From a virus (Duplodnaviria > Caudoviricetes): a stretch of 64,000 nucleotides of DNA. The notes under the pieces were generated by a model. The model was not told the DNA's origin. It made no database searches and saw nothing but the letters and a program-made list of their open reading frames with translations. The first letter of the stretch is position 1; each line of letters begins with the position of its first letter. This document shows positions 10,201-61,479 of this stretch, in pieces. The translations under genes and the position numbers were made by a program. Where the stretch lies: the IMG/VR virus record IMGVR_UViG_3300032093_000005. One strand, given 5' to 3'.

Positions 10201-12198
10201 CACAGGGGGTGGTGCTACTGGAGGTAGTATAACGGGTTGTTGAACTGCTTGCACTTGAGGTTGTGCCACTTGCTCAACTGGTTGTGCTGGTTGTGCTGGT
10301 TCTTCTAGTTTCTTTTCAAGTTCTTGGATTTTCTGTTCCAGAGTCTGTTCCAGAGGAGCAGTTTGTGCGTTTTTAATATCCTCAGAAATCTTCCAACTTG
10401 CAAGACCCACACTAAAAATACTAGCAAGGGCAGCAACAACAGAAACAGTTTTAGAAAAACTCATTGGTATTCGTCCTCAGGAAAAGTAAAGTATTCGTGA
10501 ATCGCAGACATCACAGCATCTTCAATATGCTCAATCACAGCACCTTCACTGGGGTTTTCTACATGTTTGTGTGCCCGATGCCATCCTTGACGCACACCCT
10601 CTTCAATTGCCTGTTCTAAAATGACATAAAACTTAGGTTTCATTCTTCTTCCTCACAAGGGAACATAGCATCATACTCTTCATCGGTCAGAGTCAGGTAC
10701 TGAACATCAGCATCTTGGTGTTCTTCGGCATACATCAGTTGATAGTGTGCGAAGTCAGAGAGACTTGTGCTCCCATATTCTACCAGACCATCAACCAAGC
10801 ACAAGTAGTTCATAATACCTCCCAATCACATTCCCAATGACAATCGTTGTTTACATTGACCCAGAAGAAGTATTTCTGATTCTCGGATGCAAGAAACATC
10901 ATACCATCACCCTTGTCTTGCTCAACAATACAAACAGGATTGTTGCCCATCATATTACACAGACGGTTCTTCGCCTTGCTGCTTTTGGGTCTTACGGTTA
11001 CTCTTTTCATTTTCAATCTCTAGTTTGAGTTTACGAATTCCAGTAATGAAGTAAGCAAAGTCACGGGTCTCTGTGATAGGTTTGGTTTCACCACACACAT
11101 CACAGGTTGACGTATAAACAGAAGAACAACCTACCGAATAAACACCATAGGTTCGTCCACAATCCATACAGGTATTATAAGCAGTTTCAAGTCTCTTGAG
11201 AAGTGCTTTCTTTTCTTTGAGGTTCATAAGGTCCAAGTTCAACACGGGGTTTTGTGTCTGCAAGGTAATCATACAGCATCTGGGCGAACCCGTACTGGGG
11301 TTTTGTGCCAGTTTCAATACTGGATGAGGTGGCAACAGTCCACATTATATCAAGTTGTAGTTTATCAGGTAAGTTCTTCATCTAAATCAACATCAATACC
11401 ATCAGTAAGGTCTTTCAATCGGTCAAAGAAATCTTCATCAAGTGGATATACCTTTTCTTCTCCTCTATCAATTCTATCACACATTTCCATCAGGTACTCA
11501 AGAAACTCTTTGGGGTAGGTTTCATCTAGGTTGATACTTGTCCAAAACCACTGGTAACATTCTTCATATGGGTCATCAGTTGGAAGTAGAGCATAGTCCT
11601 TATAGTTTCCACTGATGAGGTCTCTCCACATCTTGAAGTTATTCCACATCTCTCTCCAACCAGTTTGGAAGCAGTGACCAAAGTAATATTCAAACCAGTT
11701 TAGTTTTTTAGCCATCTTTCAACTTCATATAATCTCTTGCACGGTAAAACAATTCATCACGCCAGTTACGACCACAAATATCAAAAGTGAAACCTAACCG
11801 ACCAATAGAAAATAGAAAGGAGAATAGTCTTCCATATCCCATAGAGATTTGAAGATAAGGAAATTCAATCCATTTCCCATACTCTCCATAATCAAAAGCA
11901 AGTTGAAGTAGTGAATATCGTCTTCCAGTACAAAGAGTCATATACCATTCTTTTCCGTAGTCGTTTCTTTCGCCAAATTGAATGAGTTTCATAATCAGTA
12001 AGGTAACGACTTCAGACCATCTAATACTTCTTGGAATCTTTCGGCACGACTCTTGTGGTGCTCTACATTCTCTTCCAATACACCTACAATATCGTCCAGC
12101 ACAACATCCAGAGAGGCATCAGTATCAAAGTATTTCTGGATTGCTTCGGCAAGGTATCTCCTCCGACTCCATTCCATACTATAAGGACGATAATTCAT
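4205..12198 (-). other. Array of about 35 short co-oriented hypothetical ORFs (accessory region)
   Basis: Abutting or ATGA-overlapping 60-195-aa ORFs such as 4205-4405, 4405-4632, 4780-4986, 6395-6694, 7691-8278, 9728-10177, 10810-11016, 11365-11715; no recognisable families. Confidence 0.7.
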
Positions 12199-12219: not shown

Positions 12220-12248
12220 ATTATAGGGTATCTAGGGCAGTTTGTCAA
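12220..12248 (-). promoter_or_regulatory. Sigma70-type early promoter
   Basis: TTGACA (12243-12248) - 17 nt - TATAAT (12220-12225). Confidence 0.85.
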
Positions 12249-12448
12249 TCTTTGTTTTTTCTATCATACTGATGCCACTTGCACCAACCATCGGCAGCAA
12301 TCTTTCCTTTTACTGCGGTACAGGCATTCGGTGGTCTCCACATATTACAATTGGAGCACTTCTCATTGCCCTTCGGATGATTTTGATATTTTGCTGTTTC
12401 CTTAGAAGACTTTTCTTCTTCTGCTATAAACTCTTGATAGGATTTCAT
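12245..12448 (-). CDS. HiPIP-like [4Fe-4S] protein with T4-type capsid-targeting leader
   Basis: YQNHPKGNEKCSNC-x8-C-x6-I-x3-GWC matches HiPIP Cys spacing; N-terminus MKSYQEFIAE. Confidence 0.75.
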   Translation of the reverse strand: MKSYQEFIAEEEKSSKETAKYQNHPKGNEKCSNCNMWRPPNACTAVKGKIAADGWCKWHQYDRKNKD

Positions 12449-12451
12449 TGG

Positions 12452-12925
12452 TTAAGTTGTCTCTTGTAACATTTTTCTATAACAATCTCTGGCAATAATT
12501 GCTTCATCTATCGTATCATAAGTGCCAACATAGTAGTTAATCTTTTTATGCCACATATTGACTTGATATTTACCAGATGGGACTTTTTTTATATTTCTCA
12601 ACTCACCATTGGGACATCTGCGATTTATATTTTGTGTAGAGTTGTCTGCCCATCTTATATTGCCAGGAATATATCCAGAGTTGTTGTTTATTCTATCAAT
12701 AGAATATCCTTCTGGTCTTTCACCCAAATTTTCATCAATATATTTTAGAAACTTTATAAAACCTGGCGGAGTTTGTGTGGTGCCGTGAAACCCTCTTTCA
12801 GACCACTCTTCAAAAATTTCTATCCCACGAGCACCATACTCTGAATAGTTTATATTTTTTGGATCTTTACATCTGCGTATCATACCATTCCAAGTATGAT
12901 ATAGGGGGTGTTGTGATACTTTCAT
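12452..12925 (-). mobile_element. HNH homing endonuclease with C-terminal AP2-like domain
   Basis: YHTWNGMIRRC...RGI...SIDRINNNSGYIPGNIRWAD; C-terminal GKYQV...YYVGTYDTIDEAIIARD. Confidence 0.85.
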
Positions 12926-12927
12926 TG

Positions 12928-13003
12928 TAAGTCTTGGCGTGACTGATACTATTTATAATAACATATGTGTGGGTCTTACGCAACATAATTCCGCCAAGAC
13001 TTA
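12928..13003 (-). promoter_or_regulatory. Late promoter inside a 12-bp inverted repeat covering the translation start region
   Basis: TAAGTCTTGGCG 12928-12939 / CGCCAAGACTTA 12992-13003; TATAAATA at 12950-12957. Confidence 0.7.
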
Positions 13004-13019: not shown

Positions 13020-13343
13020 TCAATCACGAGTGCGCCAATCAGTGTCATCTTCATCTCTCTTAAACCAATCGTGTAAGTCATCAGGAGAATCAAAACCACG
13101 ACGACCAAATCTTTCGTGACCCAATCCACCAATATCTAATTGATTCATAAAGTCGTCTAAGTCACCTTCTACCATATCTGGATTCTCTGCTCTCCTTCTT
13201 GCCTGACGAAGGATTGTTGCAGCACTTCGGTTTGCTTTGGCGAGTTTTTCACACCAAATCATTTCACTTAATTCAACTGACTCACCTTTTACAATCTTAT
13301 CACAAATTGATTCAAGTCTGAGTCTGTATTGTGTGGAAAGCAT
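13020..13343 (-). CDS. Conserved cyanophage hypothetical protein
   Basis: MLSTQYRLRLESIC...W..KLAKAN motif recalled from cyanomyoviruses. Confidence 0.55.
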   Translation of the reverse strand: MLSTQYRLRLESICDKIVKGESVELSEMIWCEKLAKANRSAATILRQARRRAENPDMVEGDLDDFMNQLDIGGLGHERFGRRGFDSPDDLHDWFKRDEDDTDWRTRD

Positions 13344-13363: not shown

Positions 13364-13597
13364 TTATTTATTTTTGTATTCATCCATTAACTCTTTTGCG
13401 AGTTTCATAGACCGACGCCACATAAGATACTTCACAATCGGATTTGCAGGATTATGTAATATCCACCACTTTGTCTTTTCATATTGAACTCTTGCAAGTT
13501 GAGTGAGCATATAAAACCCTCTTGCGACTGATTGATCGGTGATAATCAGATATGCGATGCAAAAGAATATGATAAAGTAAATGTATGAGGTACTCAT
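13364..13597 (-). CDS. Small membrane protein
   Basis: N-terminal hydrophobic helix. Confidence 0.45.
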   Translation of the reverse strand: MSTSYIYFIIFFCIAYLIITDQSVARGFYMLTQLARVQYEKTKWWILHNPANPIVKYLMWRRSMKLAKELMDEYKNK

Positions 13598-19030: not shown

Positions 19031-20488
19031 TTATTTATGAATGGCGTTTATAATTTCTTTATGTGATATTCTTTGATTTTCTAATTTTTTAATTTTCGTA
19101 TATTCATAATGTTCTTTTGCAAATTCTAAAATCTGTTGTTTATTTCTTTTTGAATTTAAGAAATCTCGAATTGCATTTTTATCAAACATATTTAATCCGT
19201 TTGAAACTTGAATAAAATTATCAAGTGACCAAACAAATTTGGTTGAATTATTGCCTAGATTTTTAGCATCTAAAAACTCGTACTTACATTTTTCCTCAAA
19301 ATCTCTGACCCATTCAGTTTTATTTTCAGTCATGTATTTCCAAAAGTCAGAATCAAATCTATTTGTATTATAATGAAGACAAATAAAATCCACGATGACT
19401 TTATAAGCATTTAGGTTTATTTCATTAAATTTTTTTCTATTATATTCCAAGAAGGTTAAATTTGAATTTAAAGAAATAAAATCTTTAATTTGATTTATGA
19501 TAATGTGAATACCAGTAGACTCTAGCGGTTCTACAAATCCACTTGAAAGACCAATTGCTAAACAATTTCCAACCCATGCTTGATCATAATATCCAGGTTT
19601 ATAGTAAATAATTTTGTCTGTTTGCAATCTAACTCCAAATTTTTCTAATAGCCAACAATTATATTTTGTTTTTGCTTCTTCATCTGAAGTAAATCTGGAA
19701 GAATAAAGATATCCAGTTCCATATCGATTTCCAATTGGTATCTGCCATATCCATCCATTATCTGTCGCTTCTGCTAACGTGTAAGATGGCACTTCTTCAA
19801 AATCATATGGAATTTGTTGTGGAATTGCTCTGTCAATTGGCAAATAATCTGTAATGTCATTCCACTTTACCTTTAAGTTTTTAATTAACATAGAGTTAAA
19901 TCCAGAGGCATCAATATAAAAATCTGCTTTTACATTTCCACTATTTTTGAAATCTATACTTTCAATTTGATTATTTTCAATATTAATTTTTTCAGCAATA
20001 TCATCAATAAAATCAATCTCGTTATTCATCTTTCCAAAAATATAATTTGAAAATTCTTGTGTATCAATGTGCAGCGCATGACTATAATCAAAAGTTTTTT
20101 TTGGTAATGTAGATGTTGCTTCATTATAAAGTAGACCACCATTATAGCAATCGTTTAGAATAGAATAGATTGCACTTGATTGATCCGACTCCCCCCAAAA
20201 AGAAACTTCTTTAAATCCATGAAAATATTCTGTATTGGGAATCCAATTTTTAAAATTTATTCCTAATTTTACACTTACATTTAAGTCTCTAATTAAATCT
20301 TCAGTTTTTATTCCCAGAGAATTAAGGAATAAATGAATAATTGGTGTAGTACTTTCACCAACACCTATATTTTTTCTTTTGGCATCAAAATATAGAGAAA
20401 CTTGAACTTTATCTCCCCAATATTTTTTAATCATTGATGCTGCAATCAATCCAGAGGTTCCTGCCCCCAAAACAATAAATTTTTTCAT
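19031..20488 (-). CDS. Tryptophan halogenase-family flavin-dependent halogenase
   Basis: GAGTSG FAD motif, GVGESTTP, GWIWQIP (WxWxIP), GFVEPLESTG. Confidence 0.9.
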   Translation of the reverse strand: MKKFIVLGAGTSGLIAASMIKKYWGDKVQVSLYFDAKRKNIGVGESTTPIIHLFLNSLGIKTEDLIRDLNVSVKLGINFKNWIPNTEYFHGFKEVSFWGESDQSSAIYSILNDCYNGGLLYNEATSTLPKKTFDYSHALHIDTQEFSNYIFGKMNNEIDFIDDIAEKINIENNQIESIDFKNSGNVKADFYIDASGFNSMLIKNLKVKWNDITDYLPIDRAIPQQIPYDFEEVPSYTLAEATDNGWIWQIPIGNRYGTGYLYSSRFTSDEEAKTKYNCWLLEKFGVRLQTDKIIYYKPGYYDQAWVGNCLAIGLSSGFVEPLESTGIHIIINQIKDFISLNSNLTFLEYNRKKFNEINLNAYKVIVDFICLHYNTNRFDSDFWKYMTENKTEWVRDFEEKCKYEFLDAKNLGNNSTKFVWSLDNFIQVSNGLNMFDKNAIRDFLNSKRNKQQILEFAKEHYEYTKIKKLENQRISHKEIINAIHK

Positions 20489-28833: not shown

Positions 28834-29511
28834 TTAAGAGTAATTTTTAATTACACCAATGGACCCAACGATTCTTGTGTTTTCTTCTTGAAGATCTTTA
28901 ATTGTAAAATTCTGCCCATATCTCTCAAACTCATATTCTCTTCTTTCAGTTTTAATTTGATTTGAGCTAGTAATTAAACTTGTTAGTTCACTTCTTAAAG
29001 ATACAATTTGCGATTGCTTTGATGTTATAGATGATGCGTGTGAGACGCAAACTGAAGATGTACAAGGTATTCTGTAACAAGAAGACAAGTTACCATATAA
29101 ACTTCCGATTCCAGACTGTGTAGAATCATTTTGTGTGTAAACTAACCACGTACCTATACCTACATTTGATGTGACCAAAAATGTGCTAGTACTATCAAAA
29201 GGATCTTCACCGTTATAAGTTGGTGAGGACATATTTTCACTATAAACTCTTACAACATCAGGAAAAACAGTTGAAACGCCAACAGTTGTTCCACACCCAA
29301 CAGCATATGCATTTTGTGAAAGAGATACTATTTCCGTTTGAAGAACAACTATTGATGCTGCAATAGAAACTATCTTTTTATCAATGTTTGTACAAGGGGG
29401 TGAAAATGATTCGATGCTTTCTTGCGATTCTCCTTTACTCTCATTGAGGAAAGAGATTGCATCCGTATTTGCAGATAATTTTTCACTTAATATTTCACTT
29501 AGAAATTTCAT
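28834..29511 (-). CDS. Hypothetical virion-associated protein
   Basis: 225 aa with coiled-coil segments, in the baseplate/tail operon. Confidence 0.5.
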   Translation of the reverse strand: MKFLSEILSEKLSANTDAISFLNESKGESQESIESFSPPCTNIDKKIVSIAASIVVLQTEIVSLSQNAYAVGCGTTVGVSTVFPDVVRVYSENMSSPTYNGEDPFDSTSTFLVTSNVGIGTWLVYTQNDSTQSGIGSLYGNLSSCYRIPCTSSVCVSHASSITSKQSQIVSLRSELTSLITSSNQIKTERREYEFERYGQNFTIKDLQEENTRIVGSIGVIKNYS

Positions 29512-52340: not shown

Positions 52341-55300
52341 TTATACGTTAAATGATGCAGGGTATGTCGGTTGTGGCAATGCGTTTGCTCTTGCGCTTGA
52401 TGCTGCAAGAGACCTACGAGCAACACTTAATGCTGCACCAGGAACTGCTGCTGTTGTATCTGATGAATAAGTGACCTTATCCATTGTTGAGAATGTACCA
52501 GGACCACCACCACCAAAATAACCAGCAGTTGAGTTTCCTGATGCTGCCAGACGATAACGTGTTCCACTTAATGCGGCACCAGGAACTGCTGCTGTGGTGT
52601 CTGATGAATAAGTGACCTTATCCATTGTCGATGGTGCAGGAGAACCACCACCAAAGTATCCAGAAGATTGATTACCTGTTGCAGCAAGTTGAGAACGAGC
52701 AACACTTAATGCTGCACCAGGAACTGCTGCTGTTGTGTCTGATGAATAAGTGACCTTATCCATTAATGATGATGTAGGAAGACCACCACCAAAGTATCCA
52801 GCAGTTGAGTTTCCTGTTGCGGCAAGATAACGACGAGCAGCACTTAATGCGGCACCAGGAACTGCTGCTGTGGTGTCAGATGCATAAGTAACCTTATCCA
52901 TTGTTGAGTAATTGGGTATAGGGAATGCTGATCCCACTCCACCACCGAAGTATCCTGCAGTTGAAGATCCTGTTGCAGCAAAACTAAAACGACCAACACT
53001 TAATGCTGCACCAGGAACTGCTGCTGTTGTATCAGTGGAATAAGTAACCTTATCCATTGTTGACTGGGGACCAGGAAAACCACCACCAAAGTATCCTGCG
53101 GTTAAGGATCCTGTTGCAGCAAGTCCATAACGTGCTGCACTTAATGCAGCACCAGTAACTGTTGCTGTTGTATCTGTTGAATAAGTAACTTTATCCATTG
53201 TTGATCTTGTACCACCAGGATTAAAACCACCACCAAAGTATCCAGTGTTCGGAGTCGGTGCGAATGATGGGGTCTCAAAGGTTGGTTGTGGCAATGCATT
53301 TGCTCTGGCACTTGATGCAGCAAGATCACTACGAGCAACACTTAATGATGCACTAGGAACTGCTGCTGTTGTATCATTAGAATAAGTGACCTTATCTATT
53401 CTTGAAAAAAGAGGAAGACCATAAGACGCTCCACCACCAAAATATCCTGCATTTGAGTTTCCTGTTGCAGCAACTTTACAACGATTGGTGCTCAAAAATG
53501 CACCAGGAACTGCTGCTGTAGTATCAGTCGCATAAGTGACCTTATCCATTGTTGATCGATCAACACCAGTCAATCCCGGACTGGGTGGAGTGCCACCACC
53601 AAAGTAACCTGCGGTTGAGTTTCCTGTTGCTGCCAGATGATAACGTGCTGCACTTAATGAGGCACCAGGAACTTGTGCTGTAGTATCAGTAGAATAAGTT
53701 AACTTATCCATTGTCGATCTTAGTTCTGTACTAGTACCATAACCACCACCAAAGTATCCTGCGGTTGAGTTTCCTGTTGCAGATCCGTAAGTGCGACCTA
53801 CACTCAAAAATCCAGCAGTAGGAAGTGCTGCTGTGGTATCAGATGAATAAGTTACCTTATCCATTGTTGATATTTGTGAGGGAAATCCATATCCACCACC
53901 AAAGTATCCTGCTGTTGAAGATCCTGTTGCACTTGATATTTCACGAGCACTAGATAGTTTAGCCAATGGAACTGCTGCTGTGGTGTCTGATGAATAAGTG
54001 ACCTTATCCATTGTTGAATAATTTCCGACACCAGGAACCTGACCACCACCAAAGTATCCTGCGGTTGAGTTTCCTGTTGCTGCCAGACGATAACGAGCAG
54101 CACTTAATGCTGCTCCAGGAGCTGCTACTGTTGTATCAGTTGAATAAGTGACCTTATCCATTGTTGATCTTACACCAGGAGCAGAACCACCACCAAAGTA
54201 CCCAGTGTTTGGTGCTGTTACATTAACTGTTCCTGGTGTTGCAGTGAGTGCTGGTGGTTGTGGTAGTGCATTTGCTCTTGCGCTTGATGCAGCAAGACCA
54301 AATCGGGGATAACTTAAGTTTGCACCAGGAACTGCTGCTGTGGTATCTGATGAATAAGTGACCTTATCCATTTCTAAGAATCCAGGACCACCACCAAAGT
54401 ATCCTGCTGTTGAATTACCTGTTGCACCAAGATAACCACGTGCTGCACTTAATGCGGCACCAGGAACTGCTGCAGTGGTGTCTGATGAATAAGTGACCTT
54501 ATCCATTGTTGAGAATGTTTGACCACCACCAAAGTATCCTGCTGTTGAGTTTCCTGTTGCGGCAAGACCATAACGAGCAGGAACACTTAATGCGGCACCA
54601 GGAACTGCTGCAGTGGTGTCTGATGAATAAGTGACCTTATCCATTGTTGATCTTGGACCAGGATTACCACCACCAAAGTATCCTGATGTTGAGTTTCCTG
54701 TTGCGGCAAGATAGTAACGAGCAACACTTAAGGATGCTCCAGGAACTGCTGCTGTTGTGTCGGTTGAATAAGTGACCTTATCCATCAATGTAAGTCCTAA
54801 ACCACCACCAAAGTATCCTGCTGTTGAGTTTCCTGTTGCGGCAAGATAAGAACGACCAACACTTAATGCGGCACCAGGAACTGCTACTGTAGTATCAGAT
54901 GCATAAGTAACCTTATCCATTATGTCTGTAAAATAACCACCACCAAAATATCCTGCTGTTGAGTTACCTGTTGCTGCCAAACCATAACGTGCAGCACTTA
55001 ATGATGCACCAGGAACTGCTGCTGTAGTATCAGACGCATAAGTAACCTTATCCATTGTTGTATGAAATCCACCACCAGATCCACCACCAAAGTATCCAGT
55101 GTCTGGTGCTGGTGTTGCATCAGTAAATCTTGTTGGTGGGTCTGATGGAGCAAAGAAAAATGCACTTGATGCTGCAAGATTAACCCGAGCAACACTTAAT
55201 GAGGCACCAGCAACTGTTGTTCGTGTGTCAGTAGAATATGATACCTTATCCATCGTCGATCTTACTGGTATGGGAAATCCTGGAGAACTATTTCCACCAC

Positions 55301-56177
55301 CAAAGTATCCTGCTGTTGAATTTCCTGTTGCGGCAAGATTATAACGATCAGCACTTAAAAATGTGCCAGGAATTACTGCTGTGGTATCAGACGCATAAGT
55401 AACCTTATCGATTATTGATCTTGCACCACCAGAAGATGTTCCACCACCAAAATATCCTGCGGTTGAAGATCCCGTTGCAGCAAGACTAAAACGAGCATCA
55501 CTTAAAAATGCACCAGGAACTGCTGCTGCTGTATCAGATGAATAAGTCAACTTATCCATTATCGAATATATTGGTTGAGGAACTACATTTTGAGTACCAC
55601 CACCAAAGTATCCAGCGGATGAAGATCCTGTTGCAGCAAGATAATAACGAGCAGCACTTAATGCGGCACCAGGAACTGTTGATCTAGTATCAGTTGAATA
55701 AGTGATCTTATCCATTGTTGTCACATATGCTGGTTCAGATCCACCACCAAAGTATCCTGCGGTTGAGTTTCCTGTTGCTCCAGATCCATAACGAGGAGAA
55801 CTTAATGAAGCACCAGGAATTGTTGATCTTGTATCAGTCGAATAAGTGACCTTATCAGTTGTTGAGTGAATTGGTCCGGAGGAATTTCCACCCGCAAAAT
55901 ATCCAGCAGTAGAAGATCCCGTTGCTCCTAAACTATTACGAGCAACACTTAAGTTTGCACCAGGAACTGCTGCTGTTGTATCAGATGCATAAGTAACCTT
56001 ATCCATCGTTGATCTTGGAGCAGGAGAAAGAAAACCACCACCAAAGTATCCTGCAAGTGGCAGTGCTAATGGAGAAGGAGATATCCAAACATCAGATAAT
56101 GAAATCCATCCATTAGTAAAAGGTATTTTTTCTTCTCTAATATATGTTAATGTAAATACTCCTCTGGTGTTTGGCAT
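52341..56177 (-). CDS. Kelch-like repeat protein A (24 repeats in 4 blocks of 6)
   Basis: Repeats of about 47 aa: GYFGGG-loop-MDKVTYSxDT-AAVPGAxLSxxRxxLAATGNST; blocks separated by Pro-rich linkers. Confidence 0.8.
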   Translation of the reverse strand: MPNTRGVFTLTYIREEKIPFTNGWISLSDVWISPSPLALPLAGYFGGGFLSPAPRSTMDKVTYASDTTAAVPGANLSVARNSLGATGSSTAGYFAGGNSSGPIHSTTDKVTYSTDTRSTIPGASLSSPRYGSGATGNSTAGYFGGGSEPAYVTTMDKITYSTDTRSTVPGAALSAARYYLAATGSSSAGYFGGGTQNVVPQPIYSIMDKLTYSSDTAAAVPGAFLSDARFSLAATGSSTAGYFGGGTSSGGARSIIDKVTYASDTTAVIPGTFLSADRYNLAATGNSTAGYFGGGNSSPGFPIPVRSTMDKVSYSTDTRTTVAGASLSVARVNLAASSAFFFAPSDPPTRFTDATPAPDTGYFGGGSGGGFHTTMDKVTYASDTTAAVPGASLSAARYGLAATGNSTAGYFGGGYFTDIMDKVTYASDTTVAVPGAALSVGRSYLAATGNSTAGYFGGGLGLTLMDKVTYSTDTTAAVPGASLSVARYYLAATGNSTSGYFGGGNPGPRSTMDKVTYSSDTTAAVPGAALSVPARYGLAATGNSTAGYFGGGQTFSTMDKVTYSSDTTAAVPGAALSAARGYLGATGNSTAGYFGGGPGFLEMDKVTYSSDTTAAVPGANLSYPRFGLAASSARANALPQPPALTATPGTVNVTAPNTGYFGGGSAPGVRSTMDKVTYSTDTTVAAPGAALSAARYRLAATGNSTAGYFGGGQVPGVGNYSTMDKVTYSSDTTAAVPLAKLSSAREISSATGSSTAGYFGGGYGFPSQISTMDKVTYSSDTTAALPTAGFLSVGRTYGSATGNSTAGYFGGGYGTSTELRSTMDKLTYSTDTTAQVPGASLSAARYHLAATGNSTAGYFGGGTPPSPGLTGVDRSTMDKVTYATDTTAAVPGAFLSTNRCKVAATGNSNAGYFGGGASYGLPLFSRIDKVTYSNDTTAAVPSASLSVARSDLAASSARANALPQPTFETPSFAPTPNTGYFGGGFNPGGTRSTMDKVTYSTDTTATVTGAALSAARYGLAATGSLTAGYFGGGFPGPQSTMDKVTYSTDTTAAVPGAALSVGRFSFAATGSSTAGYFGGGVGSAFPIPNYSTMDKVTYASDTTAAVPGAALSAARRYLAATGNSTAGYFGGGLPTSSLMDKVTYSSDTTAAVPGAALSVARSQLAATGNQSSGYFGGGSPAPSTMDKVTYSSDTTAAVPGAALSGTRYRLAASGNSTAGYFGGGGPGTFSTMDKVTYSSDTTAAVPGAALSVARRSLAASSARANALPQPTYPASFNV

Positions 56178-57639: not shown

Positions 57640-60600
57640 TTATACGTTAAATGATATTTGTGAATTACCTGGTAATGCATTACTAGTTGCACTTGATGCT
57701 GCAAAATTATTACGAGCAACACTTAAAAATGCACCAGGAACTGCTGCTGTTGTATCAATGGAATAAGTGACCTTATCCATCGTTGATCTTGAACCACCAC
57801 CACCAAAGTATCCTGCCACTAAAGATGATGTTGCAACAACACTATCACGAGCAGCACTTAATGAGGCACCAGGAATTGTTGATCTTGTATCAGTGGAGTA
57901 AGTTAATTTATCCATTGTTGAATATGCATTGGGATTAACAAAACCACCACCAAAGTAACCTGCTGTTGAGTTTCCTGTTGCGGCAACATTACTACCAACA
58001 CTTAAAAATCCTGCAGTGGGAAGTGCTGATATAAAATCATTTGAATAAGTGATCTTATCTACTGTTGTTCTTGCACCTGGAAGTGGAGTAAAGTTATTTC
58101 CACCACCAAAGTATCCTGCAGTTGAGTTTCCTGTTGCACTAGCACCATAACGAGGAGAACTTAAGGAAGGAATTTGCGAAATAATTTCAGTAGAATATGT
58201 AAGTTTACTTGCATTTGAATATGGTCCAGGTGCAGCGGGAAAACCACCGCCACCAAAGTATCCTGCTGCTGGAGAACTTACTGCAGCAATATTTCTACGA
58301 TCTCTGGTTATACTGGATCCAGATATAATTGTTTTTGTATCTGTTATATAATAAATTTTATCCATTAAAGAATAATCCGAACTAGACCCTGGCTGGGGAC
58401 CTCCAGAAAAATATGCTGTTGTTGAATTTCCGGTTGCACAATGATTATAACGAGCACCATTTAATGCTGCACCAGGAACTGCTGCTGTTGTATCTGATGC
58501 ATAAGTAACCTTATCCATTGTTGAATATACGAAAGAAGCAATACCACCACCAAAATATCCAAAATTTGAAAATATTGTTCCTGTCTGAAAAGTCGGTTGA
58601 GGTAGTGCATTTGCTCTGGCACTCGCTGCTCCAAGATAAGTGCGAGCAGCACTTAATGCGGCACCAGGAACTGCTGCTGTGGTATCTGATGCATAAGTAA
58701 CCTTATCCATTGTTGCCACTATGGCACCACTAAAACCACAACCAAAGTATCCAGCGGATGAAGATCCTGTTGCAGAAAGAGAATAACGTGTTGCACTTAA
58801 TGCGGCACCAGGAACTGTTGATCTAGTATCAGTTGAATAAGTCACCTTATCCATTGTCGATGATGCAGGAACACCACCACCAAAGTATCCTGCTGTTGAA
58901 GAACCTGTTGCGGCAAGAGAATAGCGAGCAATACTTAATGCTGCACCAGGAACTGCTGATGTAGTATCGGTCGAATAAGTGACCTTTTCCATTGTTGTTA
59001 ATGGACCAGGAAAACCACCACCAAAGTATCCTGATGTTGAGTTACCTGTTGCAGCAAGACCACTACGAGCACTTAATGAGGCACCTGGCAGCGCAGCAGT
59101 GGTATCTGATGAATAAGTCAATTTATCCATTGTCGATGCCACAGGATTACCACCACCAAAGTATCCTGCGGATGAAGATCCAGTTGCGGCAAGGTATTTA
59201 CGAGCAGCACTTAAAGCAGCGCCAGGAACTACTGCTGTTGTATCTGATGCATAAGTCACTTTATCCATTGTTGAATATAAATTAGGAGATACAATACCAC
59301 CACCAAAGTATCCTGATATTGAATTTCCAGTTGCAGCAGAACCTCGACGTGCCACACTTAATGAAGCACCAGGAACTGCTACGGTAGTATCTGATGAATA
59401 AGTAACCTTATCCATTGTTGATGATGATGTTGAAGGACTAGGACCTCCCCCACCAAAGTATCCAGTGTTTGGTACAGATGCATTGAAAATTGTAGGTGTT
59501 ACTGTCGTTGCTGGTGGTTGAAACAATGCATTGGCTCTGGCACTTGATGCGGCAAGATCATAACGAGCAACACTTAATGCGGCACCAGGAACTGCTGCTG
59601 TGGTATCTGATGAATAAGTGACCTTATCCATTGTTGAGCTTACAGGACCAGAAGTACCACCACCACCAAAGTATCCTGCTGTTGAAGATCCTGTTGCGGC
59701 AAGACCATAACGAACAGCACTTAATGCAGCACCAGGAACTGCTGCAGTAGTATCAGTAGAATAAGTGACCTTATCCATTGTTGAATGATAATTAAATGCA
59801 GATCCCGTAAAATAATAACCACCACCAAAGTATCCTACTGTTGAGTTACCTGTTGCAGCAAGAGCGGCTCGAGCCGCACTTAATGAAGCACCAGGAACTG
59901 CTGCAGTAGTATCAGTCGAATAAGTGACCTTATCCATTCTTGATATATTATTAAATCCACCACCAAAATACCCTGCCGTTGAGTTTCCTGTTGCGGCAAG
60001 TTTACTGCGACTAATACTTAATGCTGCTCCAGGAAGATCAGACATAGTATTTGAATTATAACTTAATTTAGACATTCTAGTGCCAGGACTACCACCACCA
60101 AAGTATCCTGCTGTTGAGTTTCCTGTTGCGGAAAGACCATAGTTGATTGAACTAAAAAATGCTGTGGTTGGTGCTACTGCATTTGTATCTGCCGCATAAG
60201 TTATTATCTGTACCGATGAAACAAAATTTGATATACTATAATCAAATCCACCTCCAAAGTATCCTGCTGTTGTGTTACCTGTTGCACCTTGTTGAGCTCT
60301 TGCAACCGCAAAAAAAGCACTAGGAATTGCTGCAGTTAAATCTGTTGAATAGTTTAATTTATCAACTGTGGCGCTGGAAGCACCACCTGCAAAATATCCT
60401 GTTTGTGGAGATAAAGTTCCATCAATAAATTTTGATGATGCAGATGATGGTAAAGTACTTACTACTCCCGGCAGTGCATTTGCTCTTGAACTCAGTGCAG
60501 CAAGAGTATTGCGAGGAATACTTAAAGCTGCTGTAGCAACTGCTGAAGTATTTTCTGTTGCAAAAGTCAACTTATCCATCGTCGAACTTACGCCAGGTGA

Positions 60601-61479
60601 ATTTCCTCCACCAAAGTATCCTGCTGTTGAGTTTCCTGTTGCAGCAAGACTACTACGTACAGTGCTTAAATTTGCGCTAGTTGGTGCTAAAGCAGTTGTA
60701 TCTGATGAATATGTAAGTTTATCCATCGTAGATACGTTAGAAGGAGATAATCCACCTCCAAAGTATCCTGCTGTTGAAGAACCTGTTGCGGCAAGAGAAT
60801 AGCGAGCAACAGTTAAGTTTGCACCAGGAATGAGACTACATGTGTCATAAACATATGTAACCTTATCCATTGTCGATCTTGGAGATCCCTCAAAACCACC
60901 ACCAAAGTATCCTGCTGTTGTGGATCCTGTCGCACCAAAACCAAAACGAGCAACATTTAATGCGGCACCAGGAACTGCTGCTGTAGTATCAGTTGAATAA
61001 GTCAACTTATCCATTGTTGAATATGTACCAGGAACACCAGGAAATAGACCACCACCAAAGTATCCTGCCGTTGAGTTTCCTGTTGCAGCGAGAGCACGAC
61101 GAGCAACACTTAAGAATGCACCAGGAACTACCGCAGTAATATCAGTAGAATAATTAAGTTTATCTACTGTCGAATAAGCACCAGGAGCAAAACCACCACC
61201 AAAGTATCCTGCTGTTGAGTTTCCTGTTGCAGCAAGTTGATAACGAGCAGCACTTAATGCAGCACCAGGAACTACCGCAGTAATATCAGTAGAATAATTA
61301 AGTTTATCTACTGTCGAATAAGCACCAGGAGCAAAACCACCACCAAAGTATCCAGTATTTGATGCTACTGATTGTAGTGGTGATGGTGAAACCCATATAT
61401 CAGTTAGCGGAACATAATCTCCTGCTAATGAATTATCAACAACATCAAATAGTCCAAAAACCCCCCGTGTATCAGGCAT
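57640..61479 (-). CDS. Kelch-like repeat protein B (24 repeats in 4 blocks of 6)
   Basis: Same repeat as protein A; shares the MPxTRGVF start and SFNV end. Confidence 0.8.
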   Translation of the reverse strand: MPDTRGVFGLFDVVDNSLAGDYVPLTDIWVSPSPLQSVASNTGYFGGGFAPGAYSTVDKLNYSTDITAVVPGAALSAARYQLAATGNSTAGYFGGGFAPGAYSTVDKLNYSTDITAVVPGAFLSVARRALAATGNSTAGYFGGGLFPGVPGTYSTMDKLTYSTDTTAAVPGAALNVARFGFGATGSTTAGYFGGGFEGSPRSTMDKVTYVYDTCSLIPGANLTVARYSLAATGSSTAGYFGGGLSPSNVSTMDKLTYSSDTTALAPTSANLSTVRSSLAATGNSTAGYFGGGNSPGVSSTMDKLTFATENTSAVATAALSIPRNTLAALSSRANALPGVVSTLPSSASSKFIDGTLSPQTGYFAGGASSATVDKLNYSTDLTAAIPSAFFAVARAQQGATGNTTAGYFGGGFDYSISNFVSSVQIITYAADTNAVAPTTAFFSSINYGLSATGNSTAGYFGGGSPGTRMSKLSYNSNTMSDLPGAALSISRSKLAATGNSTAGYFGGGFNNISRMDKVTYSTDTTAAVPGASLSAARAALAATGNSTVGYFGGGYYFTGSAFNYHSTMDKVTYSTDTTAAVPGAALSAVRYGLAATGSSTAGYFGGGGTSGPVSSTMDKVTYSSDTTAAVPGAALSVARYDLAASSARANALFQPPATTVTPTIFNASVPNTGYFGGGGPSPSTSSSTMDKVTYSSDTTVAVPGASLSVARRGSAATGNSISGYFGGGIVSPNLYSTMDKVTYASDTTAVVPGAALSAARKYLAATGSSSAGYFGGGNPVASTMDKLTYSSDTTAALPGASLSARSGLAATGNSTSGYFGGGFPGPLTTMEKVTYSTDTTSAVPGAALSIARYSLAATGSSTAGYFGGGVPASSTMDKVTYSTDTRSTVPGAALSATRYSLSATGSSSAGYFGCGFSGAIVATMDKVTYASDTTAAVPGAALSAARTYLGAASARANALPQPTFQTGTIFSNFGYFGGGIASFVYSTMDKVTYASDTTAAVPGAALNGARYNHCATGNSTTAYFSGGPQPGSSSDYSLMDKIYYITDTKTIISGSSITRDRRNIAAVSSPAAGYFGGGGFPAAPGPYSNASKLTYSTEIISQIPSLSSPRYGASATGNSTAGYFGGGNNFTPLPGARTTVDKITYSNDFISALPTAGFLSVGSNVAATGNSTAGYFGGGFVNPNAYSTMDKLTYSTDTRSTIPGASLSAARDSVVATSSLVAGYFGGGGSRSTMDKVTYSIDTTAAVPGAFLSVARNNFAASSATSNALPGNSQISFNV
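61118..61353. repeat. 92-bp perfect direct repeat (61118-61209 and 61262-61353)
   Basis: Identical copies 144 bp apart, encoding repeats 1 and 2 of protein B. Confidence 0.9.

Follow-up and report, generated by a model that had tools for sequence, protein, structure and literature searches.

A 64,000-nucleotide stretch of IMG/VR virus record IMGVR_UViG_3300032093_000005 (hereafter the window) carries, at 12448..12245 on the (−) strand, a gene of 67 codons plus stop whose product is predicted to join a T4-type capsid-targeting leader to the domain of a high-potential iron-sulfur protein (HiPIP). All features given here lie on that strand. The leader corresponds to codons 1–10 (MKSYQEFIAE; 12419..12448) and ends in I8-A9-E10, a cleavage motif of the L/I-x-E form. 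Residues 12–59 (12272..12415) make up the HiPIP domain, as placed by a profile search against the PDB. In translation the protein begins MKSYQEFIAE-EEK and contains the cysteine pattern C31-x2-C34-x8-C43-x6-I50-x3-G54-W55-C56, of which the predicted cluster ligands are encoded at 12356-12358 (C31), 12347-12349 (C34), 12320-12322 (C43) and 12281-12283 (C56). Two tryptophans, W55 and W58, are the predicted cluster-shielding aromatics, mapped from the HiPIP PioC. An initial annotation, made from the letters of the DNA alone, had called an open reading frame (ORF) at 12245-12448 with the MKSYQEFIAE start and a CxxC-x8-C-x6-I-x3-GWC pattern, and our translation agrees with it on each point.

The window itself is a piece of a freshwater T4-like cyanophage genome, with tail-fibre, baseplate-hub/lysozyme and further tail genes; the head module lies outside it. 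Among 50,697 phage records, its sole relative was the freshwater Synechococcus phage S-SRM01 (Kyanoviridae, Serangoonvirus), which encodes a HiPIP homologue, QPX48026.1, that is 88% identical and is labelled ‘hypothetical protein’ in its record. Besides this copy in S-SRM01, close homologues were found at 85 IMG/VR loci and in 18 metagenomic protein clusters. The close family is essentially viral: across 185,579 species-representative genomes it appeared on a single contig, which comes from a lake metagenome-assembled genome and looks mis-binned, and the nearest ESM-Atlas clusters are 100% viral. Those clusters are auto-named ‘HiPIP domain-containing protein’, so an automatic HiPIP label is already present in databases.

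The initial annotation had recognized a HiPIP cysteine signature and proposed a profile search as a check. That search returned Pfam HIPIP (PF01355) over residues 13–57 with 24.2 bits (E 4e-5), above the gathering cut-off of 22 bits. A profile built from the close homologues retrieved PioC (6xyv) first from the PDB at E 3.3e-13, with residues 12–59 of the query aligned to residues 3–50 of the 54-residue chain, followed by two further HiPIPs at E 1.2e-4 and 1.5e-3. In PioC the cluster is held by C22, C25, C34 and C47 and flanked by the aromatics W46 and Y50, and the conserved shield of the cluster is formed by the Trp that precedes the last Cys together with an aromatic two to three residues past that Cys (PMC7462912). 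The four PioC ligands fall on C31, C34, C43 and C56 of the phage protein at a constant offset of +9, W46 falls on W55, and W58 takes the place of Y50. When 71 diverse homologues were aligned, the four cysteines, Y21, V46 and G54 were invariant and W55, P25, P40 and G48 nearly so. An AlphaFold2 model calculated from the same alignment was confident (pLDDT 90.4, pTM 0.72); a model from 11 close homologues only had a pLDDT of 48 and was unusable, and the diverse alignment was used instead. With this model as query, the best 18 Foldseek matches in the PDB were all HiPIPs, led by PioC 6xyv (rmsd 1.3 Å, TM-score by target 0.78) and 1isu (rmsd 1.1 Å). By every criterion of sequence and predicted fold that we applied, residues 12–59 are a HiPIP domain of the PioC type.

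PioC, from R. palustris TIE-1 (6XYV), is the smallest known HiPIP, and it shares about 38% identity with the phage protein over 48 aligned columns. The two have in common the C-x2-C-x8-C-x12-C spacing, the Trp before the fourth Cys, an aromatic at two residues past it and, in the model, the fold; they are also similar in size, with 57 residues in the predicted mature phage HiPIP and 54 in PioC. They differ in where they are expected to work. PioC reaches the periplasm by the twin-arginine translocation (Tat) pathway and there carries electrons from the PioAB iron oxidase to the photosynthetic reaction centre, with a potential of +450 mV, whereas the 67-residue phage protein, encoded by a cyanobacterial virus, has no signal peptide and appears to bear a head-targeting leader instead. 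Neither a twin-arginine motif nor a hydrophobic signal region was found in it; the initial annotation, too, had stated that a Tat signal is absent.

We compared this leader with that of the T4 internal proteins. In the T4 record MKTYQEFIAE heads both IPIII (193 aa) and IPII (100 aa), and the phage leader is identical to it at nine of ten positions, S3 against T3 being the sole difference; the near-exact match to IPIII given in the initial annotation is accurate. Within the T4 capsid-targeting sequence (CTS), residues 4 and 7 serve targeting and residues 8 and 10 serve processing by the gp21 protease, which cleaves after L/I-x-E (PMC9026906). All four of these residues are identical in the phage leader, which by its sequence satisfies the definition of a T4 CTS. 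Four regular expressions of decreasing strictness found no other such N-terminus in the window, and reversed control patterns gave 0 matches in the phage genomes searched. A 225-aa ORF of the baseplate/tail module (28834-29511, (−) strand), which had no PHROG match, starts with MKFLSEILSE, a looser leader-like sequence with L4, I7, L8 and E10, and its product, too, may be packaged or processed by a protease.

The leader is conserved in the close family. Its logo reads M-K-[STN]-[FYL]-x-[ED]-[FY]-[LI]-x-E-E-E-K, with MKSFQEFLSE as the consensus leader, and positions 4, 7, 8 and 10 are kept across all 53 distinct copies of the gene, a result that goes against the loss of the leader in homologues that the initial annotation had named as grounds for doubt. 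Across these 53 sequences five different Leu codons encode L8, Ser codons of either family occur at S3 and S9, and the invariant E10 uses both Glu codons. This synonymous turnover points to a constraint on the peptide, not on the RNA. Leaders of the same type also precede distant HiPIPs whose domains are 40–60% identical (P0021, P0022, P0024, P0026 and P0033). In a homologue search that covered 1.8 billion sequences, we classed the N-termini of the 150 best representatives: 53 had twin-arginine signals, 28 had nothing ahead of the domain and 10 had a leader of the phage type. In the profile alignment the phage leader stops at the start of mature PioC and, because it ends exactly there, it stands in for the Tat signal. 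On these alignments, the export signal of cellular homologues is replaced in the phage protein by a T4-type CTS. A second metagenomic group (P0031, P0034, P0035, P0037, P0046, P0049, P0054 and P0086) has a short leader of another kind, M-[KR]-x-x-[DE]-L-[FLS]-E-[EGS]-K, with the HiPIP domain immediately behind it, then a GGAYGKRGK linker and a long C-terminal part, which in some members includes LysM and GH19 lysozyme.

The phage HiPIP thus resembles T4 IPII and IPIII, and also IPI and Alt, in its ten-residue leader, its residues 4, 7, 8 and 10 and its L/I-x-E site for a gp21-type protease, and a constant leader on a variable cargo is common to both. Unlike the T4 internal proteins, it carries a metalloprotein cargo that is unrelated to theirs in sequence, has Glu at the P1′ position and belongs to the Kyanoviridae, not the Straboviridae; its packaging is predicted.

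If the leader works as in T4, the phages that bear it should encode a protease of the gp21 type. Peptidase_S77 (gp21-type) is encoded in S-SRM01 and in two of the three long HiPIP-bearing IMG/VR genomes. In S-SRM01 (MW015081, 135233-135883) it is the product annotated as ‘primosomal protein’ (QPX48181.1), which matches the Peptidase_S77 prohead protease at E 8e-38, and that label looks like a misannotation. The T4 gp23 propeptide is 65 residues long (PMC9026906), and S-SRM01 gp23 aligns with T4 gp23 across the cut, SFLSE/ASPT against SFLTE65/AEIGG. The F-L-S-E of this S-SRM01 site recurs in the consensus HiPIP leader. A nucleotide pattern written for the leader matched at least 120 IMG/VR loci, nearly always at ORF starts, with diverse cargo that included very basic proteins resembling internal proteins. 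Among the matches listed were 18 long contigs; Peptidase_S77 is encoded on 10 of them, and each of the three complete genomes has it. Some leader ORFs in IMG/VR (L002, L045 and L063) continue as gp23/gp24-like proteins (...PVAGFDK...), and there the leader seems, from the sequence, to serve as a short propeptide of a shell protein, as in T4 gp24.

Published virion proteomes allowed the leader to be set against packaging directly. The pattern K-x-[FL]-x-x-F-[LIVM]-x-E matches the 175-kb genome of S-CREM2 (OR473000) at four places and no others, all of them protein N-termini, and its reversed control matches nowhere. The four proteins are a S-adenosylmethionine (SAM) hydrolase (ORF6), ORF13, an APH-like kinase (ORF14) and a cytidylyltransferase (ORF154), and all of them are in the S-CREM2 virion proteome, which comprises 52 of 221 ORFs (PMC10665884 Table 3; hypergeometric p ~0.003 for four of four). 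In a second phage, S-SCSM1 (MK867354), the NMNAT (ORF91) was detected in virions by mass spectrometry (PMC9602691), and we found that it starts with MKSFLQFLKE (88819). Syn9, P-SSM4, P-SSM2 and S-SRM01 also encode NMNAT-like proteins that begin with this leader. The ‘frequent detection’ of such enzymes in cyanophage virions has been noted in both studies without an explanation or mention of a leader (PMC10665884, PMC9602691). Published proteomics thus links leaders of the HiPIP type to virion-borne proteins in two cyanomyoviruses. The S-CREM2 SAM hydrolase, kinase and cytidylyltransferase and the S-SCSM1 NMNAT share with the phage HiPIP the leader M-K-x-[FL]-x-x-F-[LM]-x-E and the family Kyanoviridae. 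They differ from it in that they were found in CsCl-purified virions, whereas its own packaging is predicted, and in their cargo: S-CREM2 and S-SCSM1 have no HiPIP, and their leaders precede nucleotide or SAM enzymes.

A strict DNA pattern with E at position 6 had given 0 matches in Syn9, S-PM2, P-SSM2 and P-SSM4, and a first relaxed regular expression gave none in Syn9 or S-PM2. The view that the leader is not a Kyanoviridae feature was overturned once positions 5 and 6 were freed, and that pattern identified NMNAT-like and basic leader proteins in Syn9, P-SSM2, P-SSM4 and S-SCSM1. Four leader proteins are encoded by S-SRM01: the HiPIP, a ‘cytidyltransferase’, a protein of 102 aa from the late structural cluster and one of 447 aa whose gene is preceded, at 22 nt, by TATAAATA. 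A HiPIP-bearing contig (G023) encodes two very basic leader proteins in tandem, downstream of GATAAATA, and on an S-CREM2-like contig the gene that overlaps the HiPIP start itself encodes a leader protein.

HiPIP domains also occur inside larger phage proteins. Among the same 150 best representatives we surveyed the 20 of at least 200 aa and found HiPIP joined to Phage_Mu_F head morphogenesis (P0043), to head-maturation proteases of the S78 or DUF2213 type (P0105, P0061, P0074 and P0152), to the InPase domain of polyvalent proteins (P0056 and P0110), to an Acb1/2H phosphoesterase (P0152), to NUDIX (P0074), to LysM and GH19 lysozyme (P0034, P0058 and P0086) and to cytidylyltransferases (P0053, P0063 and P0065); P0034 and P0043 lie on contigs of 2–3 kb, whose gene context was uninformative. 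The InPase, 2H and lysozyme modules are phage-type and probably packaged and injected (Iyer et al. 2017, PMC5512222); HiPIP or iron-sulfur domains go unmentioned in that paper. As in its polyvalent proteins, HiPIP domains share polypeptides with MuF, proteases, InPase, 2H/Acb1, NUDIX and lysozyme. The protein in the window, in contrast, is a stand-alone chain of 67 aa with a single domain and a predicted cleavable leader, and does not belong to the polyvalent class. By their architecture, the fusions lend independent support to a place for the HiPIP domain in the capsid-interior or ejected repertoire. That PioC-type HiPIPs form a widespread, undescribed class of such phage modules, free-standing behind a T4-type leader in aquatic T4-like (cyano)phages and, in other tailed phages, joined to MuF, head-maturation proteases or polyvalent anti-defence effectors, is a generalization to which we give somewhat less than an even chance.

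The genes around the HiPIP gene bear on when it would be expressed. Upstream of it on the (−) strand lies an HNH homing-endonuclease gene (12452..12925; 157 aa; PHROG HNH endonuclease families, E 5e-36), and beyond that a gene for a 107-aa phrog_507 protein (13020..13343; PHROG E 1e-37; function unassigned). The HiPIP start codon overlaps, or directly follows, the stop of the gene before it (mostly phrog_507) in nearly all relatives, and most of 50 loci have TGATG or TAATG junctions at the HiPIP start. The HNH insertion is present only in the window and in an IMG/VR contig that is 94% identical (L132); it is absent at this place in S-SRM01 and nearly all other relatives. It splits an otherwise translationally coupled phrog_507–HiPIP pair, and it brings along its own copy of TATAAATA, the T4 late-promoter consensus, at 12950..12957, 24 nt upstream of the HNH gene. 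The initial annotation had placed the HiPIP gene downstream of a late promoter at 12950-12957. The motif does lie there (12957..12950) and belongs to the inserted HNH gene (12925..12452), and we reject it as evidence of late expression: TATAAATA is not enriched in the window (4 occurrences against 4.95 expected by chance), and in 49 of 50 loci no late motif was found within 150 nt of the HiPIP ATG. The motif conserved in relatives is instead AATAAATA, which is late-promoter-like and lies at 13365..13372, 29 nt upstream of the phrog_507 ATG. At this place (−28/−29) N[AC]TAAATA is present in 40 of 44 distinct upstream sequences, with a conserved TAT(A/C)TGGAG behind it, even though different genes lie farther upstream. 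A published late-promoter motif of cyanomyoviruses is NATAAATA (PMC2984593).

On the other side, a perfect sigma-70-type promoter (TTGACA-17-TATAAT, 12/12 consensus; 12220..12248) lies across the HiPIP stop codon and points into the following gene, which encodes a 67-aa phrog_1461 protein (11995..12198; function unassigned). Of 50 related loci, 20 have a similar element at the HiPIP stop codon. By these signals the phrog_1461 gene is probably a separate early transcription unit, and the HiPIP gene seems to end a late unit that an early unit then follows. Elsewhere in the window, a gene for a 485-aa tryptophan-halogenase-like protein (19031-20488, (−) strand; phrog_2928, E 1e-96) lies between tail-fibre genes, and two paralogues of ~1,278 aa (52341-56177 and 57640-61479, both (−) strand) each consist of six to seven repeats of phrog_19111 (function unassigned).

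This arrangement could also be that of an auxiliary metabolic gene whose HiPIP acts inside the infected cell, perhaps as an electron carrier or sink beside other electron-transfer genes of cyanophages, without being packaged, so that the N-terminal helix is a mere part of the protein or a fossil. Cyanophages do carry auxiliary genes for electron transfer. The region of small accessory ORFs, the flanking consensus sigma-70 promoter and the position outside the head cluster would all suit such a gene, as would the existence of leader-like N-termini on proteins without virion detection (T4 gp61.1 and S-SCSM1 ORF30). A fossil leader, however, is hard to reconcile with the retention of the four T4-critical positions across homologues whose domains have diverged to 40–60% identity, or with the exact replacement of the Tat signal. 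Without export, moreover, a HiPIP cannot reach high-potential partners in the lumen or periplasm, and the late-type motif conserved upstream and the repeated fusion of the domain to capsid-interior proteins also speak for another role. We therefore regard an unpackaged auxiliary protein as unlikely, though worth keeping in mind.

Packaging and cleavage of the phage HiPIP are more likely than not. We give a slightly more guarded yes to the whole account, in which a PioC-type HiPIP has had its Tat signal swapped for a T4-type leader and is packaged and delivered with the DNA; on balance we favour it. Its course might be as follows. Late in infection the gene would be transcribed in one unit with phrog_507 from a promoter of the NATAAATA type, as the conserved motif suggests. 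The [4Fe-4S] holo-protein would then be assembled in the host cytoplasm, by analogy with cellular HiPIPs, which are assembled as holo-proteins there prior to Tat export (PMC7462912); this order of events makes it plausible that a holo-protein is available for loading into the prohead. The ten-residue amphipathic leader, with F/Y4 and F7 for targeting, would direct the protein to the prohead core, as T4 genetics and the cyanophage virion proteomes suggest, and a gp21-type prohead protease would cut after Glu10 at I/L-x-E and release a HiPIP of 57 residues. This product would stay with the DNA in the head and enter the next host at ejection. Our best guess is that, once delivered, it would serve as a one-electron, high-potential redox centre acting on some target in the host in the first moments of infection, a role that we put forward only tentatively. 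An alternative after delivery is that the stable mini-fold works as a binding or inhibitor scaffold, by analogy with T4 IPI*. The initial annotation had proposed a packaged and injected redox protein that acts on host electron transport or redox state or protects the DNA. Several parts of this proposal now have a footing, namely a true HiPIP-family domain, a conserved leader, a protease in relatives and virion proteins with like leaders. The presence of the protein in virions and its [4Fe-4S] cluster are predictions, and an effect on host electron transport or a protection of the DNA is a proposal.

Several observations weigh against this account. The gene sits among small accessory ORFs beside a perfect sigma-70 promoter and outside the head module. 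The residue after the predicted cut is Glu, where T4 sites have Ala or Ser; the virion-detected S-CREM2 kinase likewise has E right after its predicted cut. T4 gp61.1 starts with the similar MKTFKEFIKE and is not known as packaged, and the 106-aa leader protein ORF30 of S-SCSM1 is unflagged as a virion protein; a leader alone is thus insufficient as evidence of packaging. (T4 gp61.1, NC_000866, 18966-19130, is a 54-aa hypothetical protein encoded beside the primase gene.) A centre of +300 to +450 mV has no obvious partner in the cytoplasm. Large cargo carried by the T4 CTS, such as GFP, appears to refold after ejection (PMC9026906). A HiPIP that unfolded would lose its cluster. At 57 residues the predicted HiPIP is about the size of T4 IPI*. 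That protein reportedly passes folded (Rifat et al. 2008).

The same packaged protein might have no redox function at all. Here the compact HiPIP scaffold would bind and block a host defence protein or assist in the handling of cargo inside the head, with a cluster or Zn that is structural only. T4 IPI*, which is small, packaged and inhibits a restriction enzyme, is a precedent (PMC9026906), and the domain's fusion partners are mostly anti-defence or nucleotide-directed (Acb1/2H, NUDIX, InPase, NMNAT-like) or head proteases and not redox enzymes; a redox partner in the cytoplasm is also not evident. A scaffold, though, would not be expected to hold Y21, G54, W55, the aromatic at two residues past the fourth Cys and the four Cys, all of them residues of the HiPIP cluster environment, invariant or nearly so in 71 diverse homologues, a conservation that fits a genuine [4Fe-4S] site, and its target is not known; we consider it distinctly improbable. 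Least credible by far is a chance resemblance, in which an AT-rich start rich in Lys, Phe and Glu merely favours translation (AAA being a common second codon) and precedes a generic zinc ribbon (L32 zinc-ribbon proteins were weak PDB matches, E 0.15), against which stand the five synonymous codons for L8 and both codon families for S3 and S9, which indicate selection on the peptide, the absence of matches to the reversed-pattern controls, and the HiPIP match at E 3e-13 with a confident HiPIP-fold model.

Taken as a packaged HiPIP, the protein would widen what phage heads are known to deliver. Head-packaged proteins do their work ahead of all phage gene expression. Known cargo includes anti-restriction inhibitors, ADP-ribosyltransferases and polymerases and, in cyanophages, NMNAT-like and SAM-degrading enzymes. 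Text searches of the searchable literature found no paper on HiPIPs in phages, in lists of auxiliary metabolic genes or in polyvalent proteins, and with an iron-sulfur electron carrier the head-packaged cargo would gain a new class. The cultured S-SRM01 and its host, Synechococcus sp. KCZYC6, put packaging, processing, iron content and redox chemistry within reach of direct testing. The rule M-K-x-[FL]-x-x-F-[LIM]-x-E accounts for the ‘non-structural’ enzymes that recur in cyanophage virion proteomes, and it lets packaged cargo be predicted from sequence. If PioC-type HiPIPs are indeed a general class of capsid-interior or ejected modules, many phages would bring a high-potential [4Fe-4S] centre into the cell along with their DNA.

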